From IMG/VR virus record IMGVR_UViG_3300030708_001737, positions 1-37,606 of that record: DNA of 37,606 nucleotides; one strand, given 5' to 3'. The notes beneath the pieces were generated by a model. It ran no database searches. It was not told the origin of the DNA and worked only from the letters and a program-made list of their open reading frames with translations. Source of the stretch: a virus (lineage: Duplodnaviria > Caudoviricetes). The position numbers and the translations under genes are program-made. This document shows positions 2,478 through 28,561 of this stretch, piece after piece (position 1 is the first letter of the stretch; each line of letters opens with the position of its first letter).

Positions 2478-3197
2478 ATGGCGATCACATTAGAATCTTC
2501 ACAAACTAGCTCTTTCACATCGGGTACATCCTTGACGATAAGCCTTCCCTCTGGAGTATCTTCTGGGGATTTGATACTAGTCATCGCTGGTGTCGAAAGC
2601 GATTCAACGCTTACCACTCCCAGCGGATATACCGAGGCGGCTACAGAGCTTGTCACAGCATCGTTTGATGGCTCAAATTTATGTAGAATGTACATATTTT
2701 ATAAAATTGCAGGAGGCTCTGAAAGCAACCCTTCTACTACTTCCAACTCAAACACGGCAGACAAAAGATTTATAACCCATAGATTTTCTGGTGTGAATAG
2801 TGGCCAGCCAATAGATATAATAAGTAGTGGAACAGACAACACTAAAGTCTATCCTCCGGGCAGTCCTCCGACATTTAAGATCGGATCGGGAAGTCTTGAG
2901 TGGTTTCACAAAGCCTTATTTAGAGTCGCTATATGTAACGATAACGGAGACAATGGTACTTTTGACAGCACTCAAACTTTTACGGGTCACACTAGAAGAG
3001 GTATACTGACGGGGCTTGAAGTTGGGGCAATTAGTATTCAAAAAGACTCTGTTTCAACAGGGACGTTCTCCAGTTTGACTCTGGCCACACAATCAATAGA
3101 TGGCGGAGAAGTAGACGGTATATGTTTTGCCAATATAGGGATATTGGAGACATCCTCTGGAACATCCCGAAACATGATGATGACCGGCGTTGGATAA
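2478..3197 (+). CDS. Ser/Thr/Gly-rich beta-strand protein, putative virion (tail or adhesion) component
   Basis: SLTISLPSGVSSGDLILV...LTTPSGYT...IFYKIA motif typical of phage tail-associated domains. AGGA RBS. Confidence 0.55.
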   Translation: MAITLESSQTSSFTSGTSLTISLPSGVSSGDLILVIAGVESDSTLTTPSGYTEAATELVTASFDGSNLCRMYIFYKIAGGSESNPSTTSNSNTADKRFITHRFSGVNSGQPIDIISSGTDNTKVYPPGSPPTFKIGSGSLEWFHKALFRVAICNDNGDNGTFDSTQTFTGHTRRGILTGLEVGAISIQKDSVSTGTFSSLTLATQSIDGGEVDGICFANIGILETSSGTSRNMMMTGVG

Positions 3198-3201
3198 CAA
3201 A

Positions 3202-3720
3202 ATGAAGATTATTGATAACGAGAGAGAGCCAACTGATTGGGATAACATATTCTTGCAGGAGGCAACTCTATGGTCTCGAAGAAGTCATGACATTGAGACA
3301 CAGTGCGGATGTGTTTTAGTAAAAGATAAAACCGTTATCTCTTCTGGGTATAACGGATTTATCAGAGACATAGATGACTCAGACCTACCAAATACAAGGC
3401 CGGGCAAATATCCATTCATGATACACGCCGAAGCTAATGCTATATACAACTCTGTAAGAATAGGAAGATCAACACTTGGAGCGACCGCATACATAACCGC
3501 AATACCCTGCTTATCCTGTCTACAAATGTTGTATCAATGTGGTATAGAGGAGATAGTTTATTCTGATATATCCAATCCAAAGATGTGTACAAGCTCAGCC
3601 AAGTATCTAACGATGGCTAGCAAAATAATTGAAAAGATAGATATATCTTTTATACCTAAATCAAAGCTGTCTGCTGAATTTTTATCAGAGGCTCATGAAA
3701 AAATTTGTAAAAAAAACTGA
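3202..3720 (+). CDS. dCMP deaminase (ComEB / T4 Cd-like)
   Basis: GYNG, HAEANA and PCLSC zinc motifs, with QCGI downstream. Confidence 0.93.
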   Translation: MKIIDNEREPTDWDNIFLQEATLWSRRSHDIETQCGCVLVKDKTVISSGYNGFIRDIDDSDLPNTRPGKYPFMIHAEANAIYNSVRIGRSTLGATAYITAIPCLSCLQMLYQCGIEEIVYSDISNPKMCTSSAKYLTMASKIIEKIDISFIPKSKLSAEFLSEAHEKICKKN

Positions 3721-3728
3721 AGAACCTG

Positions 3729-3757
3729 TTGACAAATGACGATACCTAGGTTATAAT
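3729..3757 (+). promoter_or_regulatory. sigma-70 consensus promoter
   Basis: TTGACA 3729-3734, 17-nt spacer, TATAAT 3752-3757, intergenic. Confidence 0.85.
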
Positions 3758-3799
3758 GATAGTGTATCAGCGAACGACAAAGCAAGCGAGGAAATCAGG

Positions 3800-4216
3800 A
3801 TGGCGAAGAAAAGGAAGCAACCATTGAAGTCTTGTCCGGACTGTCAAGAACAGTGTCACGCAAGACTGGCGACATGCAAGAAATGCGGATACGTTTTCTA
3901 TAAGAAGAAAAAGAGATTCATTGAAAATTGGAAAGAAGAGATTAATCCGGGTGACCACGTAAGAGTTGTTGGAAGATCAGGAACTTATTACATCAAGGAA
4001 AGTGGAGAGAGAATATATTTCACAAACCCCGGTGTCTATTTGGTAAAAAAGATTCTTAAGGATGGCATAGTCGCCATAGGAGTAGGTAGAATATGTCATG
4101 GTTATGAGTTTCTTTACATGGGTAAAGAGAAGAAGTCATCTATGTTGGATTCGATGTTTAATAGTCCACATAAATTAATTAGTGTTTCTTTAAAGAAAAG
4201 AAAAGGAGAGTCTTAA
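3800..4216 (+). CDS. zinc-ribbon hypothetical protein
   Basis: CPDC...CKKCGY motif followed by a small beta domain. AGGA RBS. Confidence 0.75.
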   Translation: MAKKRKQPLKSCPDCQEQCHARLATCKKCGYVFYKKKKRFIENWKEEINPGDHVRVVGRSGTYYIKESGERIYFTNPGVYLVKKILKDGIVAIGVGRICHGYEFLYMGKEKKSSMLDSMFNSPHKLISVSLKKRKGES

Positions 4217-4434
4217 TGACTACAAATTGGAACTTGTTACTAAACAACAAGCGTAACATGAGTACGGTATCAAACTTTGCAAAGGGAGATATGTCAGGTA
4301 AGGATTTTATTTCGGCTTTTGCTGGAACAACAAGCGGCGGGACTGCTCGTTCGCTTCTAAAGACGCACGGCGTTGACAAAAGTCGCACGCTAGCAAAGAA
4401 GGCACTCTACCGTCGAGAGTCTTCACGAGGTTAA
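4216..4434 (+). CDS. hypothetical protein (72 aa)
   Basis: TAATG coupling with the upstream gene. AGGAG RBS. Confidence 0.7.
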   Translation: MTTNWNLLLNNKRNMSTVSNFAKGDMSGKDFISAFAGTTSGGTARSLLKTHGVDKSRTLAKKALYRRESSRG

Positions 4435-4456
4435 TTTTACTTTTAGGGAGTTTAAT

Positions 4457-4819
4457 ATGTTTAACAATAGAGTTATTTTGAAGGGCAATTTGACTAAAGA
4501 TCCTGAGTACAAAAACGTATCAGAGAAAGATCTTGTTACTTTTAGAATTGCCGTTAACGAATCGGTTGGAAACGGTCGAGAAGAAACTGTTTACTTGGAT
4601 GTAGACGGTTGGGGTAGTCACGCGGCTTATGCACAGAATGTGACACTAAGCAAGGGGGATCGTGTGATTGTTGACGGACGGCTTCGTCAGCGAAGCTGGG
4701 AAGACAAGAATGGTGTATCCCGTACATCATACAGTGTTTTGCCAAGTACCTTCTCAAAGGTAGTCAAGCCTACCCGAGCTTTATCGGAGGAATCGGGAGC
4801 TGATTCTGACACCTTTTAG
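4457..4819 (+). CDS. ssb: single-stranded DNA-binding protein
   Basis: NRVILKGNLTKDPE, FRIAVN and KGDRVIVDGRLRQRSWEDKNG motifs; acidic tail ending in F. Confidence 0.95.
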   Translation: MFNNRVILKGNLTKDPEYKNVSEKDLVTFRIAVNESVGNGREETVYLDVDGWGSHAAYAQNVTLSKGDRVIVDGRLRQRSWEDKNGVSRTSYSVLPSTFSKVVKPTRALSEESGADSDTF

Positions 4820-4830
4820 ACCGTAGCAAT

Positions 4831-4880
4831 GAAGACTAGCTCGATGGCCTCTTCAGCGGGGTCATCGGGTTGGCTTCTTT
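4831..4880 (+). terminator. long G.U-rich stem-loop after ssb (terminator or processing element)
   Basis: 4836-4851 pairs with 4858-4873 (16 bp, 5 G.U), plus GAAG/CTTC, followed by a short T run. Confidence 0.6.
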
Positions 4881-4886
4881 AATATT

Positions 4887-5087
4887 ATGAAAAACATCAA
4901 CTCACAAATAAAAGATCTAGACGACAGAATACACGTACTTTCTGAGCGTTCTTACTCGCCAGAAATATCTGGTTCAGAGTTAAGAGAAATAAACAAACGT
5001 AAGAAAAAGCTTCTTAAAAATAAGAAGAAACTATTGAAAAAAATTGAGCATAATCAAGATCAATTAGACTATAATGAATTAGACTAG
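4887..5087 (+). CDS. small coiled-coil hypothetical protein (66 aa)
   Basis: ATG-started ORF in the + strand gene run. Confidence 0.55.
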   Translation: MKNINSQIKDLDDRIHVLSERSYSPEISGSELREINKRKKKLLKNKKKLLKKIEHNQDQLDYNELD

Positions 5088-5105
5088 AGTAGCTTACTAG
5101 TCTAA

Positions 5106-5267
5106 GGAAGGTGGCTGAAAATACCGGAGCAAACCAGTGACGGTAACAGCACACGAGTCTCAACCGGACGGGCAAGTGCTATACATGGTTGAGATAGTGG
5201 TTAAAGTAGGCGACATGACATAACTGGTGCCGAAATTTGTGGGTAAAATGTAAATCCCACCCTTCCA
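5106..5267 (+). ncRNA. tRNA-shaped structured ncRNA with a pseudoknotted D-loop insertion
   Basis: GGAAGG 5106-5111 pairs with CCTTCC 5261-5266. T-arm-like GTGGG/CCCAC. D-arm halves TGGCTGA and GTGGTTAAAGT. Four further helices: TACCG/CGGTA, ACCAGT/ACTGGT, AGCAC/GTGCT, TCTCAACC/GGTTGAGA. Lies in a non-coding gap. Confidence 0.7.
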
Positions 5268-5328
5268 TTTTTATACAAACTGTGCCGTTTTGGGCAGTTA
5301 AATTTCTTGCTAACATAGGAGAATTATA

Positions 5329-5751
5329 ATGGCTAATGTAGATAGACTAATGTCTAACCATCAACAATTATTTCGCACTCTATTTTCCAACTCTATTGGT
5401 ATGGACAGAGTGTTCAACCGTCTCACCAGCACAGAGACGAGTAATTTCCCGCCCTACAACATCATAAGACACGAAGACAGGGTTTCTGTAGAACTGGCTG
5501 TTGCCGGATATAAAAAAGAGAACATATCTGTCACGGTCAATGATGGAGTATTGAGCATCACAGGAAGCTGGGAACAAGAAGATAAGAATCACCTGCACAA
5601 AGGAATCTCTACTAAAGACTTCAAAAGGACTTTTAGTCTTGGCGAATATGTAGAGGTAAAATCTGCGGAACTAAAAGACGGTCTACTGAGAGTGTCGCTG
5701 GAAGAAGTTCTCCCGCCAGAGAAACAACTGAAAGAGATTAAAATAAAGTAA
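5329..5751 (+). CDS. hsp20: small heat-shock protein Hsp20 (IbpA-like)
   Basis: NFPPYNI, ELAVAGY, LHKGIS.KDFKRTFSL and AELKDGLL motifs. AGGAG RBS. Confidence 0.95.
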   Translation: MANVDRLMSNHQQLFRTLFSNSIGMDRVFNRLTSTETSNFPPYNIIRHEDRVSVELAVAGYKKENISVTVNDGVLSITGSWEQEDKNHLHKGISTKDFKRTFSLGEYVEVKSAELKDGLLRVSLEEVLPPEKQLKEIKIK

Positions 5752-5924
5752 TGAAAATTTTAGATACGCTGGTTTTTATAATGCCCTCCGTTGTGGGGGC
5801 ATTATATTTTATAACAGCTATCTGTTACCTATTTAAAAAAGATTACGCTTGGTCACTCGTGTGGCTTTCATATGCGTTGGCAAATGTCGGACTTATACTA
5901 ATCGGATTGCGAGAAAACCAATGA
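5751..5924 (+). CDS. small two-TM membrane protein (57 aa), not in the ORF track
   Basis: MKILDTLVFIMPSVVGALYFITAICYLFKKDYAWSLVWLSYALANVGLILIGLRENQ*. TAATG and ATGA coupling on the two sides. Confidence 0.75.
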   Translation: MKILDTLVFIMPSVVGALYFITAICYLFKKDYAWSLVWLSYALANVGLILIGLRENQ

Positions 5925-6154
5925 AGAAACCAGATAGAAAGAAACAGCAAAAACAATTAGCAAGAGGAAAGAAAAAAGCACAGAAAGAACTGCTTAAAAA
6001 AAGGGAAGCAAAAAAGAAAAGAAAGATCAAGCTCGCTAAAAAAATAGCCGATAGAAGAGCAGACAGAGAGACTTTCAAAATGGAAGAGGAAATAAGAAAA
6101 CTTCAGGCAAAGCACGCTAAAAAAAATCCCGAACCGGTTGACAAACAGGATTAG
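5921..6154 (+). CDS. Lys-rich hypothetical protein (77 aa)
   Basis: ATG 5921 overlaps the upstream stop (ATGA). Very basic and helical. Confidence 0.65.
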   Translation: MKKPDRKKQQKQLARGKKKAQKELLKKREAKKKRKIKLAKKIADRRADRETFKMEEEIRKLQAKHAKKNPEPVDKQD

Positions 6155-6165
6155 TGGGTTATAAT
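6138..6165 (+). promoter_or_regulatory. sigma-70 consensus promoter
   Basis: TTGACA 6138-6143, 16-nt spacer, TATAAT 6160-6165. Same GTTGACAAA...GGTTATAATGA context as the 3729 promoter. Confidence 0.8.
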
Positions 6166-6191
6166 GAAATAAAAACTTTGGGAGCTTAACA

Positions 6192-6590
6192 ATGACAAAT
6201 TCTGGATCGCCCGTAGACCTAAGCATAGGTTTTTACTGTTTAATTTTACTCATGCTGCCTATCATACTAGCATTTGCTGGTAGTGTTTTCTGGGCTATAG
6301 CTGCGTGTATACCTGATGTAGTTTACGTAGAAAAGGAAACAGCATCCAGAAAGGCTCCCCCCATTCCTACTAATAATACACCAAAAGCACGGGAGGCTTC
6401 TATAGAAGCACCTCCAGTAATACAGAAAAACGCCACAACCAGTAGTGAAGTGGTCTCTGAGACTGTGGTCACGCTAAAAAATCTAGGGTACTCGCTAAAA
6501 GACGCTAAGTCTATTGTCTCCCAGCTAGTTTCGCAGAGATCTTATACAGACTCCGAGACCCTCCTAAAAGATTGCTTATCTTCCATTTAA
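6192..6590 (+). CDS. membrane-anchored protein with a C-terminal RuvA domain III-like helical domain
   Basis: N-terminal hydrophobic segment, Pro/Thr linker, then ETVVTLKNLGYSLKDAKSIV...DSETLLKDCL. GGGAG RBS. Confidence 0.7.
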   Translation: MTNSGSPVDLSIGFYCLILLMLPIILAFAGSVFWAIAACIPDVVYVEKETASRKAPPIPTNNTPKAREASIEAPPVIQKNATTSSEVVSETVVTLKNLGYSLKDAKSIVSQLVSQRSYTDSETLLKDCLSSI

Positions 6591-6600
6591 GAATCCTAAT

Positions 6601-6610
6601 TGTGTATAAT
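6601..6610 (+). promoter_or_regulatory. promoter motif TGTGTATAAT heading the PAP2-DUF1501 operon
   Basis: Intergenic AATTGTGTATA, the same 11-mer as at 2428-2438. No -35 box. Confidence 0.5.
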
Positions 6611-6635
6611 ATTACACACCCCACAAGGAGATAAA

Positions 6636-7310
6636 ATGGACCCAAAAGACATAATACTAGAAGTATCAAAGAAAATTGATTCCATAACCTATACAGACAC
6701 CCCAAGGTCTCAAAGAAAGGTTAAGGACATAATATCTATTGGATGGGAAAATGTCTTGCCAAACCCTCCCGCAAATACCTCCGACATAACCAAGAAGGAG
6801 CTACAATATTTATCTAGCCTTACATCAAGGCTTGACTTCAGGCAAAAAGAGCTAGTAAAACTTGTTGACAAGGAACCCTTAGACCTGTTTAACTCTATAA
6901 TCAGAAAAAACGATTTGAAGTTTGACAAAGAGTCTTTCAGAGATTTATACTACGGTACTTTTGATCCTGTTATTTTGAATCTGAAAAGCAAATACAACAG
7001 AGCTAGACCAGACCAATTAGCACCGGTTTTTGGTATGAAAGTTAACGTTATGACGACAGATACTCACCAAACGCCCGCCTACCCTTCAGGACACACTGCA
7101 TACACGGCTTTTGCGGCATACTTGTTGGCAGCAATGTATCCCGACCTAAGCTCTTCTTTTTTTGGCCGTATAGGTCTTGCGGGTTATGCAAGATGTTTAC
7201 AGGGTGTACACTATCCGTCTGACAACGACGCATCAATGGTGATCTCCGGTGCATTGTGGGAAAATGTAAAATACGAACTATACCCAGAACTATTTCCAGA
7301 GAAGAATTAA
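6636..7310 (+). CDS. PAP2-superfamily phosphatase (acid phosphatase / vanadium haloperoxidase fold)
   Basis: All three PAP2 motifs: KSKYNRARP, YPSGH, RCLQGVHYPSD. AGGAG RBS before ATG 6636. Confidence 0.9.
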   Translation: MDPKDIILEVSKKIDSITYTDTPRSQRKVKDIISIGWENVLPNPPANTSDITKKELQYLSSLTSRLDFRQKELVKLVDKEPLDLFNSIIRKNDLKFDKESFRDLYYGTFDPVILNLKSKYNRARPDQLAPVFGMKVNVMTTDTHQTPAYPSGHTAYTAFAAYLLAAMYPDLSSSFFGRIGLAGYARCLQGVHYPSDNDASMVISGALWENVKYELYPELFPEKN

Positions 7311-7323
7311 AGAAAGGCATGTT

Positions 7324-8583
7324 ATGTTAGATTTCATTTTCAATAGGAGAGAATTTCTTAGGATAGGATCTATAGGGGCAGGAATGACATTGGCGGGACT
7401 TACTGACGAAGCTTTTGCCGCTAACGCCCAGAGCTACGGAGACAAATCGGTTGTATGGGTTTGGCTAGGAGGAGGCCCCACTCAGTTTGAGACTTTTCAC
7501 GCCCCAAAAGACACTGTTCCAAGTGAATGGAGAGCGGTAAACGGTGCAAGACATGATTCTAAAACGAACATCACGCTAGGAGAAGACTGGCACGAGTTGT
7601 CCAAGCATACTTCAAAGCTAAATGTTGTTAATTCCTTTAGTCATAAAGACTCGTCGCACAGACAGGGAACGCATTTTATGATGACTGGGCACTATAACCC
7701 AGAAAGAACCACAACCTCAACCGCCAAGTACCCATCCTTTGGCTCTATCGTGTCTGCTGTGTATGGAACTAACCATCCTCAAAACGGCGTACCTTCTTAT
7801 GTTAAACAGGGAAAGATAGAAGGCGACGAAGGGGCTTGGCTTGGAGGGGCATATAAACCCTTTGACCCGTCCAATAAGGATAATCTTAAACCAAGAATCG
7901 AGATTGATAGATTCAACACTAGAAAAGATCTATTGGGAGCACTTGGCTCAGCGTCAAAAAGTATTCAGGGGAAGAGTGCTGATTCAGTTGGTTTCTATAA
8001 GGGACAAGCCTATGACGTGATTCTTGGTTCCGCTAAAGACGCATTTGCTACAGATCAGGAATCAGAAACGACAAAAGCTTTGTATGGTTCTGAAAAGGCT
8101 AACGACATTGGCGAACAAATGATCCTAGCAAGAAGACTCGTAGAACATGGAACCAAGTTTATCACCCTGCACTATGGCGGTTGGGATATGCATAGCAATA
8201 TTTCCAAAGCTCTAAAAGGAAAAGTTGCACCCATCGACAAGGCGATTTCAGGTTTTCTGCAAGATATTTGGGATCGGGGTCTAAACGAAAAAGTACTACT
8301 TGTTGTGACTGGTGAATTCGGAAGAACTAAAATTAATGCAAACAGTGGTCGTGATCACTGGCCTTCCATTACACCGATGATGATGGCAGGAGGCGAGTAT
8401 CAGTCAGGGAGGACTATTGGGGCGGCTGACAGATCCTATAGTCCTATCGACAATCCAGTAGGACCACTGGATTTACAAGCAACCTTATTTGACCACTTTG
8501 GAATTGAGCGTGGTACTCAACGCACAGATATGTCTGGGCGGCCAAGATATTTACTTGAAGGAGAAGCGAAGGTTATATTATAA
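7324..8583 (+). CDS. DUF1501 family protein, Tat-exported (copy 1)
   Basis: NRREFL signal ending in AFA. LGGGPTQFETF, YPSFGS, LARRLVE.G, GWDMH, GEFGRT and GRDHWP motifs. Confidence 0.9.
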   Translation: MLDFIFNRREFLRIGSIGAGMTLAGLTDEAFAANAQSYGDKSVVWVWLGGGPTQFETFHAPKDTVPSEWRAVNGARHDSKTNITLGEDWHELSKHTSKLNVVNSFSHKDSSHRQGTHFMMTGHYNPERTTTSTAKYPSFGSIVSAVYGTNHPQNGVPSYVKQGKIEGDEGAWLGGAYKPFDPSNKDNLKPRIEIDRFNTRKDLLGALGSASKSIQGKSADSVGFYKGQAYDVILGSAKDAFATDQESETTKALYGSEKANDIGEQMILARRLVEHGTKFITLHYGGWDMHSNISKALKGKVAPIDKAISGFLQDIWDRGLNEKVLLVVTGEFGRTKINANSGRDHWPSITPMMMAGGEYQSGRTIGAADRSYSPIDNPVGPLDLQATLFDHFGIERGTQRTDMSGRPRYLLEGEAKVIL

Positions 8584-9839
8584 TGGACAGAAGATCTTTT
8601 TTACATACTGGAATCTTAGGAGCTTTTGGTACGTCTTTAGCTATGGCGGATCAAAAGCACTATGACAGCAAAGAGGGACCGGCAAAGAGCATTATATTTA
8701 TTTATCTACCGGGGGGAATGGCTCATCAGGAAACTTTCGATCCTAAACCATTTGCACCTCTTGAATATCGTGGTCCGCTGGGAAGTATAGAAACAGTAGC
8801 TCCGGGTATTCGGGTGGGAGAACTCTTAAAGAAAACCGCCAAGGTTACAGACAAGCTGACGATTATAAGAAGCCTAACTCACGGAGAAGCTGCTCATGAA
8901 CGTGGCACACACAATATGTTTACTGGCTATAGACCTAGCCCAGCCCTTCAATACCCATCAATGGGTTCAGTGGTTGCACATGAATTCGGCCCTCGCAAAA
9001 ATCTTCCTCCGTATGTCTGTATCCCAAACCAGCCTAACGAATTTGCAGGTACTGGATATTTAAGTAGCTCATATTCTGGGTTTGGTTTAGGGTCTGACCC
9101 CGCTAGTAACGACTTCCAAGTTAGAGATCTTAAGCTTCCAGTTCCGGACGAAAGGTTTGCAAGAAGGCAACGTGTACTTAATGTAGTAAATACCAACTTT
9201 AACAAAAAGCAGAACGCCGACTCTGTAAAGGCGATGAACTCTTTTTATGAGCGTGCATATAGTTTGATAGGAGATCAAAACGCAAAGGACGCTTTCGACA
9301 TAGAGAAAGAATCAGCACAGACAAGAGACAAGTATGGCAGAAATACTGCGGGTGCTAGAATGCTTCTTGCCCGAAGGCTGGTTGAATTTGGAACACGTTT
9401 TGTTACTCTTACCTACGGCGGATGGGACATGCATGATAACATAGCTAATGGCATGAATAGTCAGCTACCGGCTTTCGACCAAGGGTTTGCAAGTCTTATC
9501 GAAGATTTAGATCAGCGTGGTTTACTAGAATCAACTCTAGTCTGCGTTGTTTCTGAGTTTGGAAGAACCCCAAAGATCAACAATCGTGCAGGAAGAGACC
9601 ACTGGCCAAAAGTGTTTAGCACAGTGCTTGCTGGTGGTGGAATCAAGGGGGGAATGACATATGGAACCTCAAACGCCACCGCGAGCGAGCCAGACCAAAA
9701 TCCAGTCAACATAGAGGACTGGGCTGCTACCATCTACAATAGATTAGGAATAGTTGCCGATAAAGAACTAATGGCTCCGGGCGAAAGACCCATCGAGATC
9801 GTAGACGGCGGTAAAGTTTTAACAGACATTATTACATAA
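8583..9839 (+). CDS. DUF1501 family protein, Tat-exported (copy 2)
   Basis: DRRSFL signal ending in AMA. GGMAHQETFDPKP, IIRS, PSMGS, LLARRLVE, GWDMH, SEFGRTP and GRDHWP motifs. Confidence 0.92.
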   Translation: MDRRSFLHTGILGAFGTSLAMADQKHYDSKEGPAKSIIFIYLPGGMAHQETFDPKPFAPLEYRGPLGSIETVAPGIRVGELLKKTAKVTDKLTIIRSLTHGEAAHERGTHNMFTGYRPSPALQYPSMGSVVAHEFGPRKNLPPYVCIPNQPNEFAGTGYLSSSYSGFGLGSDPASNDFQVRDLKLPVPDERFARRQRVLNVVNTNFNKKQNADSVKAMNSFYERAYSLIGDQNAKDAFDIEKESAQTRDKYGRNTAGARMLLARRLVEFGTRFVTLTYGGWDMHDNIANGMNSQLPAFDQGFASLIEDLDQRGLLESTLVCVVSEFGRTPKINNRAGRDHWPKVFSTVLAGGGIKGGMTYGTSNATASEPDQNPVNIEDWAATIYNRLGIVADKELMAPGERPIEIVDGGKVLTDIIT

Positions 9840-9850
9840 GGAGAACTATT

Positions 9851-10045
9851 ATGAAATTTAAAATACCCTTTTTGGCGGTATTGATTGTAGGTGCAATTCT
9901 ATTTATCAATAAAGATGAAGTAAAAAATATGTTTACAAAGGAGAATCCTGTGATTTGTGATATTTGCGAAAACGAATGCCCATGTGTAGAAGAGACTTGT
10001 ATTTGCAAAACCGAGATATGCAAATGTCCTAACTGCATTAGTTAG
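9851..10045 (+). CDS. small membrane-anchored or secreted Cys-rich (metallothionein-like) protein
   Basis: Hydrophobic N-terminus, then 9 Cys in the last ~30 aa (CxxC, CxC). AGGAG RBS. Confidence 0.75.
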   Translation: MKFKIPFLAVLIVGAILFINKDEVKNMFTKENPVICDICENECPCVEETCICKTEICKCPNCIS

Positions 10046-10061
10046 CTAAGGAGTTGATATA

Positions 10062-10439
10062 ATGAAATACTTAGTATTAATACTATGTTTGTTGTTTATT
10101 CCTTTGTCAGCCGAGGCACAACAGCCTGAACGCAAGGTTATCAAGCCTCCGGTTGTAAAGAGCGTTCCTAGAGATTTTACGAGACCACAACCACAGAGAC
10201 CCTCTGGTTTTGGCAAACAGGAATGGCAAAGACCTCAACAGCCTCAAGTTAGGCCTAGCCATAACTACAGACACGGAAGCATAATAATCGGTAGACCGTA
10301 TGTTTACCCATATCAGTACAGGGTGTATCCACCAACGATTCACCATTACTACTATGGTCCTCCGGTAATTGTTCAGCCACAACCTGTTCCTGTTTACCCG
10401 TCTCCGTTTAGCGGACTATTTTTTCACTTTAGGTTTTAA
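10062..10439 (+). CDS. secreted Pro/Gln/Tyr-rich low-complexity protein
   Basis: Sec signal peptide ending in AEA, PY-rich body, C-terminal GLFFHFRF. AGGAG RBS. Confidence 0.75.
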   Translation: MKYLVLILCLLFIPLSAEAQQPERKVIKPPVVKSVPRDFTRPQPQRPSGFGKQEWQRPQQPQVRPSHNYRHGSIIIGRPYVYPYQYRVYPPTIHHYYYGPPVIVQPQPVPVYPSPFSGLFFHFRF

Positions 10440-10440
10440 T

Positions 10441-11652
10441 ATGAAAAGAAGAGAATTTCTATCGTCATTAGCTGGAGTCGCAGCACTCACCAATACGTTA
10501 AAAGCTAATGAGCAACAGCTAAAGAAAAATGGTAAATCGGCCATTCTCTTATGGATGGGAGGTGGCCCTTCTACTATGGATATTTGGGACTTGAAGCCAA
10601 ACACGCCAACGGGCGGCCCATTCAAACCAATCGCAACTAGTGGCGATGTGCAGATAAGCGAACATATGCCGTTAATGGCAAAGCAGATGCACAACATGGC
10701 TATCGTCCGTAGCATGAGCACCCGTGAAGCAGACCATATGCGTGGCAGGTATTATATGCACACAGGTTATGTTCCAAGCCAAAGCATGGTTCATCCAAGC
10801 TACGGCTCTGTTATCTCTAAGCAGCTAGACAGGGGCCTTATGATTCCACAGTTCATCTCTGTAAATGGCGGGAGCATGGGGGCTGGGTTCTTGGGGGCAG
10901 AGTTTGCACCTTTAATTCTAAATAGTGATGGCAACATCAGAAACCTCAATATGAAAATAGATGAAAGATTTTATCAAAGAGCACAAGTTCTTGATATGAT
11001 AGAAACTAATTTTATCAATAGCAACAGAGGAAGTATGGCAAAGGAGCATCAAAAAGTACTTAGAAAAACTTTTAATGTTCTAACTAGTACAGAGATGGAC
11101 GCAACAAAAGTAGCCAAGGAACCCGAATCTGTGAGAGAGAGATATGGAGACAATAGCTTTGGCAAGGGATGTCTAATGGCTAGAAGATTAGTGGAAGTTG
11201 GCGTGCCTTTTGTCGAGGTGGGCTTAGGAGGATGGGACAACCATCAAAATATCTTCCCAACATTAAGAGACGAAAAGCTACCCATGCTCGATCAGGGTAT
11301 GAGTGCTTTGGTAGAGGACTTAGAGCAGAGAGGACTACTAGAGGATACGGCTATCATATGGATGGGCGAATTTAGTAGAACCCCACGTATCAACCAAAAC
11401 GCTGGTCGTGACCACTGGGCACGAAGCTGGAGTGTGGTTGTAGGCGGTGCCGGTATGAAGGGCGGCATAGCCGTTGGTGCTACAAATGAAGATGGTACTA
11501 GAGTAGAAACAGAACCATATTCCTCCCAAGATGTCATGGCTTCGGTATGCAAAGCACTTGGCATTTCGCTACAAACCACTTACACGAGTAATAGTGGGCG
11601 ACCTATGAAAATAGCTAATTCAGGAAAAGTGATTACTGAACTATTTTCTTAA
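10441..11652 (+). CDS. DUF1501 family protein, Tat-exported (copy 3)
   Basis: ATG 10441 gives MKRREFL. WMGGGPSTMDIWDLKP, IVRSM, HPSYGS, CLMARRLVEVGV, GWDNH, GEFSRTP and GRDHW motifs. Confidence 0.92.
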   Translation: MKRREFLSSLAGVAALTNTLKANEQQLKKNGKSAILLWMGGGPSTMDIWDLKPNTPTGGPFKPIATSGDVQISEHMPLMAKQMHNMAIVRSMSTREADHMRGRYYMHTGYVPSQSMVHPSYGSVISKQLDRGLMIPQFISVNGGSMGAGFLGAEFAPLILNSDGNIRNLNMKIDERFYQRAQVLDMIETNFINSNRGSMAKEHQKVLRKTFNVLTSTEMDATKVAKEPESVRERYGDNSFGKGCLMARRLVEVGVPFVEVGLGGWDNHQNIFPTLRDEKLPMLDQGMSALVEDLEQRGLLEDTAIIWMGEFSRTPRINQNAGRDHWARSWSVVVGGAGMKGGIAVGATNEDGTRVETEPYSSQDVMASVCKALGISLQTTYTSNSGRPMKIANSGKVITELFS

Positions 11653-11662
11653 GGGTGTAAAA

Positions 11663-11953
11663 ATGAAATTTTTTAAGTGTAGTGTGTATGTATTATTTAC
11701 ATTAAGTATAGCGAACCTAGCATTTAGTGCGTATACATATAGAGACCTCAGACAACCAAAGATTTTACATAATTCCGATCCAGCAATAGCTGAGTTTTCA
11801 AGACAAGCGATGATGAGAGAAACCCAAATACTTCAAGGTATACTAATGATACATCACGACAGAGAGATGCATCCTTCTGGAACCCAAGTTTTGTGTCCTC
11901 TGTGCGATCAAGAGAAACAACTAAAGTCAATTATAGTACAAAAGGAGAACTAA
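11663..11953 (+). CDS. membrane-anchored hypothetical protein with a CxxC
   Basis: N-terminal TM segment; HH...H...CPLC near the C-terminus. Confidence 0.7.
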   Translation: MKFFKCSVYVLFTLSIANLAFSAYTYRDLRQPKILHNSDPAIAEFSRQAMMRETQILQGILMIHHDREMHPSGTQVLCPLCDQEKQLKSIIVQKEN

Positions 11954-11954
11954 G

Positions 11955-13163
11955 ATGCCACTTCCAGAACGGCGAGACGATGAGTCACGAGAGAATTATA
12001 TGTCTCGATGTATGTCAGACAGCAAAACAAATAAAGAGTTCCCAGACCAAAAACAAAGAACTGCTGTCTGCATGTCTAGGGCTATGGATGGCCTATCCGG
12101 AATGGCGGCTGCCGACTTCAAGTATAATTTAGAAGAACTGGGCTATACAGAGGAGCTTACGGAAGATAATTTTTATGTGCCAGCACAAGCTGAGTACGTC
12201 GATTTCAAAGAACAGACAGAAGAGTGGGATGTTTCTGTGGCTAAGCCCGGTCTCTGGGAAAACATAAGAAAGAAGAAAGAAAGAGAAGGGGACGACTATA
12301 GACCTGCCCGCACTGAAAAAGAGGGAAGACCCAGCCAAGAAGAGCTAAAGAAAGCACAGGGACCCAAAAAGCAGAAGAAGGTTGGACCGCCCTCATACGC
12401 TGAAGAGGCACAGGCAGACAAGCCGCCAAAGGGAGATCCAAGAAGAACTCCGGCACCTAAGAAAGATCAAAAGAGAGGATCTAAAAAGAACAAGCCTGAC
12501 AGTGCAAAGAATCCTAGCGGCAAAATTACTTTTAGCAAGGAGACTACTGCGAAGCTGTCCAAGAAGGTAAAAGAACATAACGCTAAAGGCAAGGGATCAA
12601 AAGCAACTCTCGGTATGTTAAAGGCGGTGTACCGCAGAGGAGCCGGAGCTTATTCAACTAGCCATGCACCAAAGATGTCCAGAGACGGATGGGCTATGGC
12701 TAGAGTAAATGCCTTCCTCACACTACTTAGAACCGGCAAACCTTCAAACTCAGCGTATACACAAGACAACGACCTTTTACCAAAAGGGCACCCAAAGAAG
12801 TCAAAGGCAGAGGCGGCCTACAAGTATATGAACCCTAAGACTGGAGAAATGTTTACATTCAACAGAAAGGGAGATCATAAAAAGGACGGAGTTTTGCTTC
12901 TATACAAAGGAAAGTCCGCTGAATATCAAGGCAGAAAAGTCACGCTTAACAAACCCTTTAGAACTCCTGATGGGCCAAAGAAGTTTGCCGTGTATACCAA
13001 GAACGGATCTGGAAAGGTTGTGATAGTTAGATTTGGTGATCCAAACATGGAGATCAAAAAAGACAACCCACAGAGAAGGAAAAGCTTTAGAGCTAGGCAC
13101 AAGTGTGATACCGCACCGGGCCCTAAGTGGAAGGCCAGATACTGGTCTTGCAGAATGTGGTAA
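11955..13163 (+). CDS. modular basic protein (DUF5824-like and DUF6321-like modules), possible capsid-internal protein
   Basis: Modules: MPLP..E....MSRCM; GLWENIRKK; LKAVYRRGAGAY..SH..WAMARVNAFL; YQGRKVTLNKP...FGDPNM..RKSFRARHKC..ARYWSC. Confidence 0.65.
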   Translation: MPLPERRDDESRENYMSRCMSDSKTNKEFPDQKQRTAVCMSRAMDGLSGMAAADFKYNLEELGYTEELTEDNFYVPAQAEYVDFKEQTEEWDVSVAKPGLWENIRKKKEREGDDYRPARTEKEGRPSQEELKKAQGPKKQKKVGPPSYAEEAQADKPPKGDPRRTPAPKKDQKRGSKKNKPDSAKNPSGKITFSKETTAKLSKKVKEHNAKGKGSKATLGMLKAVYRRGAGAYSTSHAPKMSRDGWAMARVNAFLTLLRTGKPSNSAYTQDNDLLPKGHPKKSKAEAAYKYMNPKTGEMFTFNRKGDHKKDGVLLLYKGKSAEYQGRKVTLNKPFRTPDGPKKFAVYTKNGSGKVVIVRFGDPNMEIKKDNPQRRKSFRARHKCDTAPGPKWKARYWSCRMW

Positions 13164-13260
13164 TATAGTGTGCAAAGCTCTTGCATGTGAGCTACTATAC
13201 TATAGACAGTTTTTTTCACACACCGTTTTTCTGATATAAAAAAAACGGACTATATAAAAT

Positions 13261-14331
13261 TTGGAGAATAAATTGATAAACCTTACTGCACCTATAAATA
13301 ACTTGGGATATGGGGTAGCTGGATATAATATATTTAAACATTTATATAAAGATCATCCATCCGCTGCCCTGTATCCCATTTCCACACCAGAATTTATTGA
13401 CGAGACGATCAGTGCTGGGCTCAAGAACAGAGGAACCTTAAAGGGGTCGCCGTCTGTTAAGATATGGCATCAAAACGATGTTCATTCACACATAGGAAAC
13501 GGACAGCATATTGGTTTCCCTATCTTTGAGCTAACTGAGTTCAATGACGAAGAAAAGCTTAGCATGAAGCACTGTGATAAGCTCTTTGTTTGCTCGGAAT
13601 GGGCTAAAGATGTTTTATACAATCAGCAGGGCTGGACTTCTCCTCCGGTACATGTTGTGCCACTAGGCGTAGATACCGACCTCTTTTGTCCGCACAAATC
13701 AAATAGACCGCAGACTATATTCTTTAATTGTGGTAAGTGGGAAAAACGCAAGGGTCATGATATATTACTAGAGTGTTTTAACTCCGCCTTTGAAGATAGG
13801 GACAATGTGGAGCTTTGGATGATGTGTGAAAATCCGTTCATTGGGCAGTCTAATGAGGGTTGGGCAAACCTTTACAAGTCTTCAAAACTAGGAGACAAAA
13901 TAAGACTAATTCCCAGACAAAAAACTCATAAAGATGTGTATAACATTATGCGACAGACTGATTGCGGTGTCTTTCCCGCAAGAGCTGAAGGCTGGAATCT
14001 AGAGCTTCTAGAAATGATGGCCTGCGGCAAAAGCGTAATAACTACAAACTACTCGGCTCATACAGAATTCTGCAACGTTGACAACTCTTTATTAGTTGAG
14101 CCCGAGGGTTTAGAGAAAGCTTCTGACGGAGTTTTCTTTTCTGGAGAATATGGTATGTGGGCTAATTTAGATGGTTCAAGAACTAAAGAACAGCTAGTCG
14201 TTCACATGAGATCCATACACAAAAAGAAGATGGCAGGGAGCCTTGAGATTAACCAAGCAGGGATAGATACCGCAAACACATTCACTTGGAAAAACTCAAC
14301 CCAAAGGCTTATACATGGAATCGAACTTTAA
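13261..14331 (+). CDS. GT-B (GT4-family) glycosyltransferase
   Basis: VVPLGVD, GKWEKRKG and FPARAEGWNLELLEMMACGKSVI (EX7E) motifs. TTG start, uncertain. Confidence 0.9.
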   Translation: MENKLINLTAPINNLGYGVAGYNIFKHLYKDHPSAALYPISTPEFIDETISAGLKNRGTLKGSPSVKIWHQNDVHSHIGNGQHIGFPIFELTEFNDEEKLSMKHCDKLFVCSEWAKDVLYNQQGWTSPPVHVVPLGVDTDLFCPHKSNRPQTIFFNCGKWEKRKGHDILLECFNSAFEDRDNVELWMMCENPFIGQSNEGWANLYKSSKLGDKIRLIPRQKTHKDVYNIMRQTDCGVFPARAEGWNLELLEMMACGKSVITTNYSAHTEFCNVDNSLLVEPEGLEKASDGVFFSGEYGMWANLDGSRTKEQLVVHMRSIHKKKMAGSLEINQAGIDTANTFTWKNSTQRLIHGIEL

Positions 14332-15238
14332 AACACCAAGAAAAACCTTAGAGTATTACAGGTCTGGTTTTGTCGGATCAATATGCGACAAAGAAGATGT
14401 CAGAAAGCTAATGAAAGAACTGCCAATGCCAGTATTTGGTGCTGCGGCATACGAGCTTTCTAATTCTGGAAAAGGCAAGCTGAGTCTACCATTCAAAGCG
14501 TTAATAAAATTTGATCCGGGTTTTGGCCCTTCTGAACGACAAACAACAGGGGACTGTGTTTCTCACTCTACTAGAAACGCTATTGACATTACTAGAGCCG
14601 TAGAGATTGTAAATGGAGAGAGGGAGGATTTTCTGGCTCGTGGAGCCACTGAGGGCATTTATCAGTCTAGGAGCCATAGTGGACAAGGAATGACTTGTAG
14701 CGGTGCTGCTAGGTATGTACATCAAACGGGCGGCATACTGATAAGAAAAGATTACGGTGACATTGATTTATCAACATACAATTCTTCACTAGGTGCAAAA
14801 AAGAGAATACCTAAAGATGTCTACATTACAGAAGCTAAAAAACATCAAGTTAGAACGATATCTAACGTCAGAACGGTGGAAGAAGCTAGAGACGCCCTTG
14901 CTAATGGCTATGCTCTTAGCGTATGTAGCGGGTATGGCTTCAGTTCTCGTAGGGATGCTAACGGCATCGCCAAACGTTCTGGCGGCTGGAGTCATGCTAT
15001 GGCTTGGATCGCTTGCGATGATACTCGTGAAACTATAAACGAGACATTATTCTTAGTTCAAAATAGTTGGGGCGTATGGAATAGTGGTCCTAAGCGTCAT
15101 GAGCAACCCGATGGTAGCTTTTGGATACGCGAGAAAGACGCTAGAGGTATGCTTTCCGGAGGAGGTGCTTGGGTATTTAGCGATGTGGAAGGTTTCCCCG
15201 CTAGAGAAATAGACTGGACAATAGATGAGGTTTTCTAA
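14315..15238 (+). CDS. papain-like (C1A-type) cysteine peptidase
   Basis: Oxyanion Gln and catalytic Cys in RQTTGDCVSH, His in WSHAM, Asn in QNSWG. Confidence 0.85.
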   Translation: MESNFKTPRKTLEYYRSGFVGSICDKEDVRKLMKELPMPVFGAAAYELSNSGKGKLSLPFKALIKFDPGFGPSERQTTGDCVSHSTRNAIDITRAVEIVNGEREDFLARGATEGIYQSRSHSGQGMTCSGAARYVHQTGGILIRKDYGDIDLSTYNSSLGAKKRIPKDVYITEAKKHQVRTISNVRTVEEARDALANGYALSVCSGYGFSSRRDANGIAKRSGGWSHAMAWIACDDTRETINETLFLVQNSWGVWNSGPKRHEQPDGSFWIREKDARGMLSGGGAWVFSDVEGFPAREIDWTIDEVF

Positions 15239-15675
15239 TGAATTTCAAAACGAGGTTAGTTATAGGGACTGTTGCGGTAGCGGTCTTTATTTATCTGAAT
15301 ATTAGTGGAAAAAATACAGAAAAGGCCTTGACAAATGATGAGTTGCAGGTTATAATAACTACAGTCAATCACGCATTTGACGAAGCAGAGCAGACAGTTT
15401 TCAACAAGGAGCCTGACGATAAGCCTGTTGGCCCAGATCCAGATCCTGAAAAATGTATTTGCAAAGGCACTGGAAAGATTGTGCAAGGCGATGGACATGT
15501 ATCAGACTGTCCTTACCACAAAAAAGAACCGGCACCAAATAAAACAACATGCAAATGCGATACATCAAAAACATATTGCAACTGCATACCAACATACGGT
15601 AAGTGTTCCTGTACCAAAACTAGCACATCTAACACCAGAACAAGAAGTATCCTTCCCTTGTTTAAGGGGTTGTGA
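15238..15675 (+). CDS. membrane-anchored Cys-rich hypothetical protein
   Basis: N-terminal TM segment, CICKGTG...GDGH..DCPYH, then three further CxC motifs. Confidence 0.75.
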   Translation: MNFKTRLVIGTVAVAVFIYLNISGKNTEKALTNDELQVIITTVNHAFDEAEQTVFNKEPDDKPVGPDPDPEKCICKGTGKIVQGDGHVSDCPYHKKEPAPNKTTCKCDTSKTYCNCIPTYGKCSCTKTSTSNTRTRSILPLFKGL

Positions 15676-15731
15676 CAATAATTTTTCGTTTGAACAGTTG
15701 TTCATTTTTATTTTTTTAAAAGGAGACTATA

Positions 15732-15908
15732 ATGTCTAAAGTAAAATCTTTACTCAAATCCCGTAGATTCTGGGTTTCTGCCGTAGGTCTTGTATCTGTG
15801 GTAGCGTCCGAGACTCTTGGAATTGAGCTAAACCAAGAGCAGATCATTGGTGTCGTTACTATCGTGGTAGCGTGGGTGATCGGTGACACCGTAAGAGAAA
15901 CCTCGTAA
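15732..15908 (+). CDS. holin-like two-TM protein (58 aa), not in the ORF track
   Basis: AAGGAG RBS. MSKVKSLLKSRRFWVSAVGLVSVVASETLGIELNQEQIIGVVTIVVAWVIGDTVRETS*. The KSR(R/K)FW motif is typical of small holins. Confidence 0.75.
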   Translation: MSKVKSLLKSRRFWVSAVGLVSVVASETLGIELNQEQIIGVVTIVVAWVIGDTVRETS

Positions 15909-15917
15909 GGATTAAAA

Positions 15918-16214
15918 ATGGAAATCTTATCAAATATCAGTGCGGTTCAGTGGGTATTTATCGCTATTGGTGCGGCAATTGCACTGCCTCCCGCCCTCTC
16001 CTCGTTGAGAGGGTTTTGGCCACAAGTCTCCAGCGTTGTAAAGCCGGAGGCCCGTAGCAATGAACTCACTGATTTGGTACGAAAGTGGGAAGATTTGTCA
16101 GACGCTTGTCAGTCAGCAGGACTGAACAAAGCGTGTCAGACACTTGACAGCGTTTTTCCTCTCTTGCTTCAAGCTAGGGAAGACGCTACTCAGGTGGAAC
16201 CCGAAACTACTTAG
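15918..16214 (+). CDS. single-TM hypothetical protein
   Basis: Hydrophobic N-terminus. AAGGA RBS. Confidence 0.75.
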   Translation: MEILSNISAVQWVFIAIGAAIALPPALSSLRGFWPQVSSVVKPEARSNELTDLVRKWEDLSDACQSAGLNKACQTLDSVFPLLLQAREDATQVEPETT

Positions 16215-17599: not shown

Positions 17600-18253
17600 A
17601 TGTTAGACGATTCTGAATTCACAACCGGCCCTAAGAAAAAGATATGCTGGAGTAGCTGGAATGCTAGCGTAGATCACTTCATAGAATCTGAACGAATTGC
17701 CATTGAAGCAATGCAAGAAGAAATGGAGGACATGGGCACAGAGATACCCCTTCTTCCGATGATGCCGATGGAAAGTGCTCCTAGGGTGCTACATACACCT
17801 TTGGGAATGTATCATCAGGAGTCGATGTTCAAACCTTCTGATAGGTGGGATTGTTGGATAGGCAGTACTAACTTCAGCATTACTCATGGAATAAAAGACA
17901 CGTTATCAATGGTAGATGGCGTGGAGGCACTGAGAGTATTAGGTAGATACACATTCTTCATAGGAGTCGCTAGTCTATTTGATTTTAAAAACGTTAGAAT
18001 TGACATAGAAAAAACCCTATGTGGATATACAGAACAAGAGCTGTTGTCAAACGAGGAAACTCAGGCAACTGTTGACCTTGTAAAGGAGCAGTTAATAGGC
18101 AATAAATATTGGTCTATACTTGTTGCTCCCACAGGAAAAGTTGATTACGTAGTTTCAGACAGTCTAGATCAAGCCTACTTAGATGGTCTGAACCAATTAA
18201 TGGAACTTAAGCAAAGAGTAGGCGGAATAATCCTAAGAGGTGATCATGGATAA
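17600..18253 (+). CDS. hypothetical protein
   Basis: GGAG RBS before ATG 17600; WDCWIG.TNF.IT and GVEALRVLGRYTFFIG blocks. Confidence 0.75.
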   Translation: MLDDSEFTTGPKKKICWSSWNASVDHFIESERIAIEAMQEEMEDMGTEIPLLPMMPMESAPRVLHTPLGMYHQESMFKPSDRWDCWIGSTNFSITHGIKDTLSMVDGVEALRVLGRYTFFIGVASLFDFKNVRIDIEKTLCGYTEQELLSNEETQATVDLVKEQLIGNKYWSILVAPTGKVDYVVSDSLDQAYLDGLNQLMELKQRVGGIILRGDHG

Positions 18254-18722
18254 CATTTTGAATAACAATTTTGAAGAATACTGGAAAAGCTCAGACGTAC
18301 AGAACATCATGAATAAGGTTGCAAATAGATATAAAAAGTCTATTGATATGGATGACATTGAGTCCATTAAGATGCAAACATTATGGAGATGTATTGATAA
18401 GTATGATGAGTCTAGAGGCACTAAGTTTACATCATATCTATATCAGCAAATAACCTTCGCGTTTAAAAATAAACTCAAGAAAAAACGTATGGAATTCAAT
18501 AACGACAGCATTGAGAAACAAGACACCAATACTGTAAATAAAATGGAAGTATTTGATATACTTACTGGACTTGAACCGGAGCTTCGTGACGTTATTGATA
18601 AAAGATTTTATCACAACATGACTATGGTTGAAATTGGCGAGTCTAATGGCTACAGCAGGGAGACCGCCAGAAGGAGACTAAAGAAAGCACTAAAAATTTG
18701 TAAGAAAACCTGTATCACGTAG
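18246..18722 (+). CDS. compact sigma-70-family RNA polymerase sigma factor (regions 2 and 4)
   Basis: Region 2: LWRCIDKYDESRGTKFTSYLY. Region 4 HTH: MTMVEIGESNGYSRETARRRLKKAL. Confidence 0.9.
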   Translation: MDNILNNNFEEYWKSSDVQNIMNKVANRYKKSIDMDDIESIKMQTLWRCIDKYDESRGTKFTSYLYQQITFAFKNKLKKKRMEFNNDSIEKQDTNTVNKMEVFDILTGLEPELRDVIDKRFYHNMTMVEIGESNGYSRETARRRLKKALKICKKTCIT

Positions 18723-28204: not shown

Positions 28205-28561
28205 ATGCCACGTTACGATTTTCAATGCGATCCATGTGCCTATTATGCGGAAATAACGCAAAGCATGGACGCTCCCTCGACATTAGAGTGTCCAGTATGC
28301 GGACAGCAAACACTAAAGAAGGCTTTCATAAATGCACCTAGTATTTTTGTTAGGGGCGAGGCCAAGACCGTAGGGCAATTGGCAGAAAGAAACGCTAAGC
28401 AAATGGGCTTTTACGAGAAGCAGGACAAAGCGATCAAAGACGGAATAGACCATGAACTCAGAAAAAAGAAAAAAGAAAAGCGAGAGCAGCATCAAAAAAT
28501 TGTATCTATGACGCCCGAGCAACAAATGAAATGGATTAGGACTGGAGACACGGGAAAATGA
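28205..28561 (+). CDS. FmdB-family zinc-ribbon protein
   Basis: MPRYDFQCDPC...CPVCG. AGGAGG RBS. Confidence 0.85.
   Translation: MPRYDFQCDPCAYYAEITQSMDAPSTLECPVCGQQTLKKAFINAPSIFVRGEAKTVGQLAERNAKQMGFYEKQDKAIKDGIDHELRKKKKEKREQHQKIVSMTPEQQMKWIRTGDTGK

Follow-up and report, generated by a model that had tools for sequence, protein, structure and literature searches.

DUF1501 genes of planctomycete origin in marine phages: candidate phage-supplied subunits of host periplasmic complexes

Three DUF1501 Genes in a Phage Genome

We describe a run of three genes, here called D1, D2, and D3, that encode proteins of the family DUF1501 in a stretch of tailed-phage DNA of 37,606 nucleotides (Duplodnaviria; Caudoviricetes; IMG/VR record IMGVR_UViG_3300030708_001737, positions 1 to 37,606), hereafter called the window. 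A single planctomycete genome encodes tens or more of the DUF1501 proteins and of their PSCyt/PSD1 partners, and we know of no function assigned to them. A first-pass annotation, made from the sequence alone, had read positions 6636–11953 as an operon of three divergent DUF1501 proteins exported by the twin-arginine translocation (Tat) pathway, and the features on which it relied are all present. The three open reading frames (ORFs) are intact (Table 1), their PF07394 scores lie well above the cut-off of 27 bits, and they cover the profile from positions 1–2 to 386–390 of its 390. Each begins with a twin-arginine motif (NRREFL in D1, DRRSFL in D2, KRREFL in D3) and contains the GG, ARRLVE, GWDxH, EF(G/S)RT, and GRDHW motifs. 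The genes are packed as closely as had been claimed, with intergenic gaps of 13, −1, 11, 16, 1, and 10 nt across the region. Pairwise identity among the three proteins is 29–35%, and searches of PHROGs and NCBIfam gave no family for any of them.

An RR-x-F-type motif is found in all 166 full-length phage DUF1501 copies, with a best 10-residue hydropathy of 1.6–2.0, and on this basis D1–D3 are predicted to be Tat-exported. The leader of D2 is shortened and retains the twin arginine and the h-region. In four related phages (L040:12298, L043:7901, L045:4983, and L064:13634) the leader of D2 hardly differs from that of D3 in the same phage (MKRREFLT...), which suggests that signal peptides have been exchanged between paralogues; other D2 leaders are shortened and retain the twin arginine and the h-region, as in the window. 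D1–D3 are under strong purifying selection, the ratio of nonsynonymous to synonymous substitution rates (dN/dS) being 0.024–0.063 in 13 of 18 pairs and the other five pairs being saturated. GC content at third codon positions (GC3) is 0.37–0.41, equal to that of the other phage genes.

Viral Origin and Variation of the Cassette

The cassette is real, widespread, and carried by genuine phage. The window comes from a virus record with phage replication genes, and a 167-kb relative rated 100% complete by CheckV (G001; Pfam scan of 114 of its 163 ORFs, PHROGs scan of 51) carries the same trio together with TerL, rIIA/B, and a cement protein. In public marine assemblies positions 3000–16000 of the window are covered in 30 of 30 bins at even depth in three of four runs; two of the runs, X2 and X3, are possibly one data set, their depths being almost the same. 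Public contigs with zero mismatches span 5248–7701 and thus bridge the left edge of the cassette; the whole block is spanned by none of the listed contigs.

A scan of viral contigs returned 531 stretches with DUF1501 relatives. Of the best 80, many of them incomplete at the ends, 49 contain D2, 31 contain D3, and 20 contain a fourth subfamily (D4). D1, D2, and D3 often occur together in marine viral relatives, with order and content shuffled and with D4 or a fifth subfamily swapped in in some of them. Complete records range from a single DUF1501 gene (D3 alone, in G413 and G414) through two (G412) to three or four in the others. A second phage group, of about 34–38% GC and 180–238 kb, has a TerL that is 55–56% identical to that of G001 in two of three records; two loci of this group (L376:6127–8004 and L378:6115–8004) encode, directly before D3, a protein of 625 aa that has a membrane anchor and a weak VWA domain and for which no homologue was seen among the cellular loci examined. 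In G001 the cassette adjoins an island of glycosyl-, sulfo-, and methyltransferase and epimerase genes around a two-part DNA polymerase III alpha (27775–54084; L301, L302).

No match to the cassette proteins was found in 50,697 phage records, and no RNA data set containing the cassette was listed. Subscription journals and most supplements lay outside our literature search, which found no paper describing DUF1501 in a phage, in line with the first-pass annotation, which knew of no such description. The accessible parts of PMC4960237, PMC11495043, PMC13035462, and PMC10632474 do not describe it either, and in that of PMC5418858 the mention of DUF1501 is a weak match on a 61-aa ORF. Host-derived phage DUF1501 genes with the features given here were thus not found in print.

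Capture from Separate Planctomycete Subfamilies

In a tree of 75 rows, which were drawn from a set of 118 and analysed under LG+G4 without mixture, the four phage subfamilies D1–D4 fall in four planctomycete host clades, and monophyly of the phage sequences is rejected by the approximately unbiased test (p-AU 1.4e-45). D1–D3 are therefore not a duplication, which agrees with what had been read from their divergence. The best identity to a host protein reaches 75% for D2, 76% for D3, 70% for the fourth subfamily, and 45% for D1, and other phage copies of D2 are up to 88% identical to a copy in a host genome. In the second phage group D3 has its place within another host lineage, and a single origin of phage D3 is rejected (p-AU 1.8e-5); by this phylogeny D3 has been captured twice, the second time by the related phage group. 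Quick trees hinted at repeated recapture of D2 from the host as well, but a single origin was not rejected (p-AU 0.5).

Host orthologues of D2 are present in 82 of 101 genomes and those of D3 in 133 of 151 incomplete genomes, nearly always as a single copy, and both genes derive from near-core, mostly single-copy genes of the Pirellulaceae. The closest relatives of D2 and D3 share a few small Pirellulaceae-family genomes (G008, G009, G261, and G384); these relatives, the sole evidence on the host, point to marine Pirellulaceae. G001 has four tRNAs and a permuted-type tmRNA call (L304:18535–19458; tag GVENYAMAA), and comparison with the candidate hosts gave 77–82% over the tRNA parts only, hence no support for a host. 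For D1, no orthologue was found at E 1e-65 in five genomes, including the two nearest hosts of D2 and D3; its sister group is a host subfamily in which most genes stand without an adjacent partner. Some D2 orthologues come from metagenome-assembled genomes labelled Chitinophaga or Kuenenia (L082, L099, L085, L086, L100, L103, L105, L109, and L130) and group with or closely match planctomycete copies. These labels or bins are probably wrong, since DUF1501 is absent from Kuenenia according to the accessible part of one survey (Kamneva et al., 2012; PMC3542564).

Partner Genes That Stay in the Host

The same part of that survey describes a four-gene cluster, DUF1501-PPC-PSCyt/Big_2/PSD1-PSCyt1/WD40, in bacteria of the Planctomycetes-Verrucomicrobia-Chlamydiae (PVC) group (Kamneva et al., 2012), and host D2 is the first gene of this cluster. 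Among 80 host D2 loci, with families named from one representative each, the neighbours include PPC in 77, PSCyt2/PSD1 in 67, and PSCyt1/WD40 in 56, the PPC gene lying directly 3' of D2 in 75. Host D3 has a different arrangement: under a strict rule a PSCyt2/PSD1 gene with one invariant CxxCH lies directly before it in 45 of 51 loci, while in the other six the partner overlaps the called start of the ORF (five loci) or the contig ends (one). It also stands beside D3 in 24 of 24 further loci, one of them sampled twice, and encodes a protein of 580 aa. Host D2 and D3 are not linked to each other. In one host (G410; L396:7951–11809) the PSCyt2/PSD1 and D3 pair follows, as judged by eye, a putative gene for ribosomal protein L17 that ends a secY-adk-map run, and so occupies a housekeeping position.

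The phages searched lack these partners, which the first-pass annotation had already noted for the window: none of its 57 ORFs matches a PSCyt or PSD1 family. PSD1 was found in none of six viral records, whereas all four planctomycete genomes used as positive control gave matches (21–92 each), and PSCyt2 was found in none of five other viral records. The viral-contig scan, a pattern-based search that distant partners could escape, gave 181 relatives of D3 but none of its partner.

Proteomic data exist for DUF1501 proteins of Tuwongella immobilis, in which the rows for 69 of 73 such proteins are marked SignalP TAT (Table S3, from the accessible part of PMC8567305). The neighbours of one of its DUF1501 genes, GMBLW1_50550, differ from those of host D3. 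In an essentiality study of P. limnophila, DUF1501 is unmentioned in five supplements (PMC10632474).

Predicted Fold and Putative Active Site

The AlphaFold2 (AF2) model of D2 has a predicted local distance difference test (pLDDT) score of 79.6 and resembles PafA (Z 18.1, root-mean-square deviation (rmsd) 4.6, 271 residues aligned), ENPP6 (Z 18.0, rmsd 3.2, 244 aligned), and sulfatases (Z 14–17; Foldseek E about 1e-6); LtaS, EptA, and YejM are also among the matches. DUF1501 is thus predicted to have an alkaline-phosphatase superfamily fold, which supports the likeness that the first-pass annotation had named. A sequence search of the PDB gave no significant relative. In the numbering of D2, all 118 rows share residues H105, D282, and H284, while E325, R328, R338, D339, and H340 are kept in all but one or two of them; in every phage row all of the putative catalytic residues are invariant. 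Weak alignments place E325 opposite the metal-binding Asp of the DNG motif in sulfatases and of the GD motif in LtaS. A global profile alignment to sulfatases failed (two template sequences), and a local one aligned residues 280–365 only.

Formylglycine sulfatases (S1) carry a C/S-x-P-x-R motif. This is absent from DUF1501, where the equivalent stretch reads H-x-x-G-T/R-H/Y-x-M-x-T-G. H105 lies nine residues ahead of the conserved T-G, just before a helix, at a local pLDDT of about 57–61, a position which we take to be the register of the sulfatase Cys and the NPP Thr nucleophile. Strand 1 ends in Gly-Gly, and by motif register a Gly presumably replaces the first metal-ligand Asp. As the motif is missing and a His, not Ser, Thr, or Cys, stands in the nucleophile register, DUF1501 does not, by its sequence, belong with the formylglycine sulfatases, and it probably falls outside the canonical phosphatases too. 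H105 is a candidate for either of two roles, nucleophile or metal ligand.

A Predicted Complex of D3 with Its Host Partner

Phage D3 (residues 24–403) was predicted together with the PSCyt2/PSD1 partner of the nearest host (residues 52–582). The pair gave an ipSAE of 0.75, against 0.00 for the best of three controls; of 157 solved complexes, 116 attain the mark for this score, as do two of 215 mismatches. At least 90% of contacts are common to the runs, and the pLDDT of the partner is at least 86. In the predicted interface the helical hairpin of D3 contacts the C-terminal PSD1 region of the partner. Its core (N168, L169, R176, R180, L184, E188, F191, R196, G197, and H203) shows no variation among the D3 sequences of marine phages, and the R-R-L core is retained in all phage rows of D1, D2, and D3.

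Possible Role During Infection

The phages have taken one subunit only, from core loci and more than once, and have kept the putative metal site and the docking core, which is the pattern known from psbA. By this analogy we propose, with slightly less than even confidence, that D1–D3 are phage-supplied catalytic subunits for host periplasmic complexes. Transcription would start from the sigma-70 promoter at 6138, and the proteins would fold and load metal in the cytoplasm before Tat export. D3, as predicted, and D2, by extension, would then dock onto haem-motif PSCyt2/PSD1 partners supplied by the host. D282, H284, E325, D339, and H340 (D2 numbering) would form the metal site, R328 and R338 would hold an anionic group, and a phosphate or sulfate ester might be attacked via H105. 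A phosphoester is slightly preferred, because PafA and NPP lead the list of fold matches and PAP2 and PhoH genes lie nearby. D1 would borrow a partner in trans or act alone. The outcome would be that a few core periplasmic reactions are kept up or retuned during infection.

Several observations weigh against this proposal. No partner gene directly adjoins the host relative of D1 in five of the six loci examined, although three of these loci lie near other DUF1501/PSD1 genes. Of the 73 DUF1501 proteins of T. immobilis, only two were seen consistently across the three replicates of a fraction, and the genes next to both are not PSD1 genes (accessible part of PMC8567305, Table S3), a poor fit to abundant housekeeping complexes, although D2 and D3 are unmapped in that species. 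The alignments behind the predicted complex hold 45 host rows each (45 of 46 rows for D3), so the prediction supports a complex at the level of the family more than one formed by this phage copy. Finally, marine phage D3 keeps 12 of 21 host-conserved positions at the interface and 167 of 196 elsewhere (Fisher p 0.004), and D3 of the window matches its nearest host at 59% of interface positions against 80% elsewhere. This drift covers residues 111–210, beyond the interface itself, and appears limited to the lineage of the window: it is slight in the second phage group (0.77 vs. 0.80), and long-leader D2 copies do not show it (about 0.92 vs. 0.87). Copies closer to the host thus look ready for docking without change, while in the D3 lineage of the window the choice of partner may be relaxed or altered.

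A wider proposal joins two claims, namely that DUF1501-PSCyt2/PSD1 pairs are undescribed periplasmic metalloenzymes with an alkaline-phosphatase fold, a His at the nucleophile position, and a haem-c partner, and that globally spread planctomycete phages repeatedly capture only the catalytic subunits of core complexes, rewire the docking surface, and use host partners to control periplasmic chemistry. That both hold is a possibility we would advance only tentatively, and it is rather doubtful as it stands.

Alternatively, D1–D3 could be stand-alone periplasmic hydrolases that free phosphate or sulfate from esters for phage replication with no partner at all, as the scavenging role suggested in the first-pass annotation would have it. 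The resemblance of the fold to PafA, ENPP6, and sulfatases would suit this, as would the PAP2 gene in the same run, PhoH in the window, the drift of the partner-facing region in the window's lineage, and the mostly solo host relatives of D1. However, the canonical sulfatase motif is missing, with a His in the nucleophile register and a Gly at the end of strand 1; the phages took near-core single-copy genes and not a sample of the numerous accessory copies, the core residues of the hairpin are invariant, and PAP2 accompanies the cassette in just 14 of 81 loci. We judge this explanation unlikely.

No better placed is a take-over of the host, in which phage subunits displace those of the host and alter an envelope-modifying complex, as active competitors or as decoys, so as to exclude competing phages or ease lysis. 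An interface that diverges at the rim while its core is held is what a competitor would be expected to have; the envelope transferases LtaS, EptA, and YejM are among the fold matches; and in G001 the cassette borders the glycosyl-, sulfo-, and methyltransferase island, while a GT1 gene follows it in the window. However, envelope transferases possess membrane domains, which DUF1501 proteins do not, and the position of the cassette varies, so that its linkage to a glycan island is inconstant. Invariant putative catalytic residues in every phage row would be needless in an inert decoy, and the invariant putative metal site favours working subunits. Of the earlier suggestion that a host DUF1501 complex is decoyed, action on such a complex lies closest to the evidence, and inert decoying fits less well. 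The two well-detected T. immobilis DUF1501 proteins come from the SDS-soluble fraction, which contains outer-membrane proteins but also many cytoplasmic ones (accessible part of PMC8567305). The chance that this account is right seems small to us.

It is still less probable that D1–D3 form a hetero-oligomer of their own or a three-step pathway, with small neighbours perhaps replacing the host partner. The frequent co-occurrence of the three genes, their tight co-oriented run, and the 96-aa His/CPxC gene that follows D3 in 40 of 78 loci would agree with it. A three-way hetero-oligomer is unlikely given the complete relatives with D3 alone; the others carry two to four copies, the genes vary in order and in kind, D4 and a fifth subfamily taking the place of others, and the host orthologues are unlinked. 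An obligatory form of the assembly or pathway raised by the first-pass annotation is therefore not supported. That the cassette is a chimeric assembly, a cellular contig, or a set of decaying neutral host genes is hardly credible: close cellular homologues (reaching 88% for D2 copies in other phages) and the want of a listed contig across the entire block could suggest it, but the virus record with its phage genes, the phage-like GC3, the even cover and bridging contigs at the left edge, the same trio in G001, the 531 viral stretches with relatives, and a dN/dS far below 1 speak otherwise.

Comparison with Known Systems

Within the PVC modules, D2 corresponds to the DUF1501 of the four-gene cluster and D3 to a DUF1501 behind a PSCyt2/PSD1 gene (accessible part of PMC3542564). 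Twin-arginine leaders and conserved motifs are shared. Unlike these modules, the cassette is phage-encoded, has left the partner genes behind, has shortened leaders and a drifting partner-facing region, and gathers subunits from several unlinked host loci together with small phage-only genes. It lies in a viral genome among viral neighbours, is host-derived, and is under purifying selection, the marks of a phage auxiliary gene. Among auxiliary genes, psbA and psbD of cyanophages supply one subunit of a host complex; likewise, one conserved subunit of a core complex appears here to have been captured repeatedly, is under purifying selection, and would rely on host partners. The present case differs in its predicted periplasmic site, its probable planctomycete host, and the several complexes that would be targeted, and it is known from genes alone. 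With the alkaline-phosphatase superfamily (PafA, NPP/ENPP, sulfatases, LtaS/EptA) DUF1501 shares the predicted fold (Z 14–18) and the alignment of E325 with the metal Asp, whereas the His in the nucleophile register, the Gly-Gly at the end of strand 1, the Phe after E325, the D-x-H and R-D-H motifs, and the inserted helical hairpin, predicted to bind the haem-motif partner, set it apart.

Phage selection has picked out a few subfamilies, among them one that was taken twice, and so shows which members matter in this large family. The problem narrows to pairs of proteins for which an interface is predicted and residues to mutate are named, and the genes indicate a likely host for a widespread uncultured marine phage family. 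If our proposal is true, subunit-supplying auxiliary genes would extend from photosynthesis to the periplasm, and a small testable model would be at hand for one of the largest unexplained gene families of planctomycetes.

Neighbouring Genes and Other Features of the Window

Table 1. Coordinates of the cassette genes and adjacent features in the window
Feature	Position	Strand	Description
Sigma-70 consensus promoter	6138..6165	+	TTGACA-16-TATAAT, perfect; upstream of the co-oriented run with the cassette; putative function
Membrane-anchored protein, RuvA C-terminal-like domain	6192..6590	+	PF07499 29.1 bits; first gene after the promoter, loosely linked
PAP2-superfamily phosphatase-like protein	6636..7310	+	PF01569; no obvious signal peptide; in 14/81 loci
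D1	7324..8583	+	419 aa; DUF1501, most diverged copy; PF07394 219 bits
D2	8583..9839	+	418 aa; DUF1501; PF07394 381 bits; orthologous to the DUF1501 of the host four-gene cluster
64-aa protein	9851..10045	+	N-terminal hydrophobic anchor, conserved Cys-rich tail; in 27/81 loci
125-aa Pro-rich protein	10062..10439	+	Sec-type signal; in 29/81 loci
D3	10441..11652	+	403 aa; DUF1501; PF07394 345 bits; predicted docking hairpin at residues 166–214
96-aa membrane-anchored protein	11663..11953	+	Conserved His and CPxC motif; most tightly D3-linked
Lys-rich modular protein	11955..13163	+	DUF5824 and phrog_7595 modules; in 50/81 loci, variable length

Five perfect TTGACA-N16/17-TATAAT sites occur in the window (974, 3729, 6138, 15328, and 19969), against 0.07 expected. 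The relative L006 has a promoter at the same position as that upstream of the cassette, and G001 has none near its cassette, so early expression is put forward as a possibility. In G001 such perfect promoters cluster among small ORFs, in what is likely the early region.

The 96-aa gene lies directly 3' of D3 in 40 of 78 loci; the protein was not found in five host genomes searched, and the Atlas yielded no usable match. The Cys pattern of the 64-aa protein is kept in 24 sequences, which makes a metal-binding peptide possible, and Pfam, PHROG, and NCBIfam gave no match. Atlas clusters that look like the 125-aa protein are 100% viral. Profiles of these three small proteins and of the PAP2 protein had no match in cellular loci totalling 2.2 Mb. 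The PAP2 gene, with a weak PhoC match far under the cut-off, accompanies the cassette in some relatives. Relatives of the Lys-rich protein vary from 64 to 524 aa, with modules shuffled and sometimes split and interleaved among the DUF1501 genes.

Elsewhere the window encodes the phage genes NrdAB, ThyX, DnaB, DnaG, a RecA-like protein, and PhoH. A phage ECF-like sigma factor lies at 18240–18722, and a zinc-ribbon protein follows PhoH at 28205–28561.

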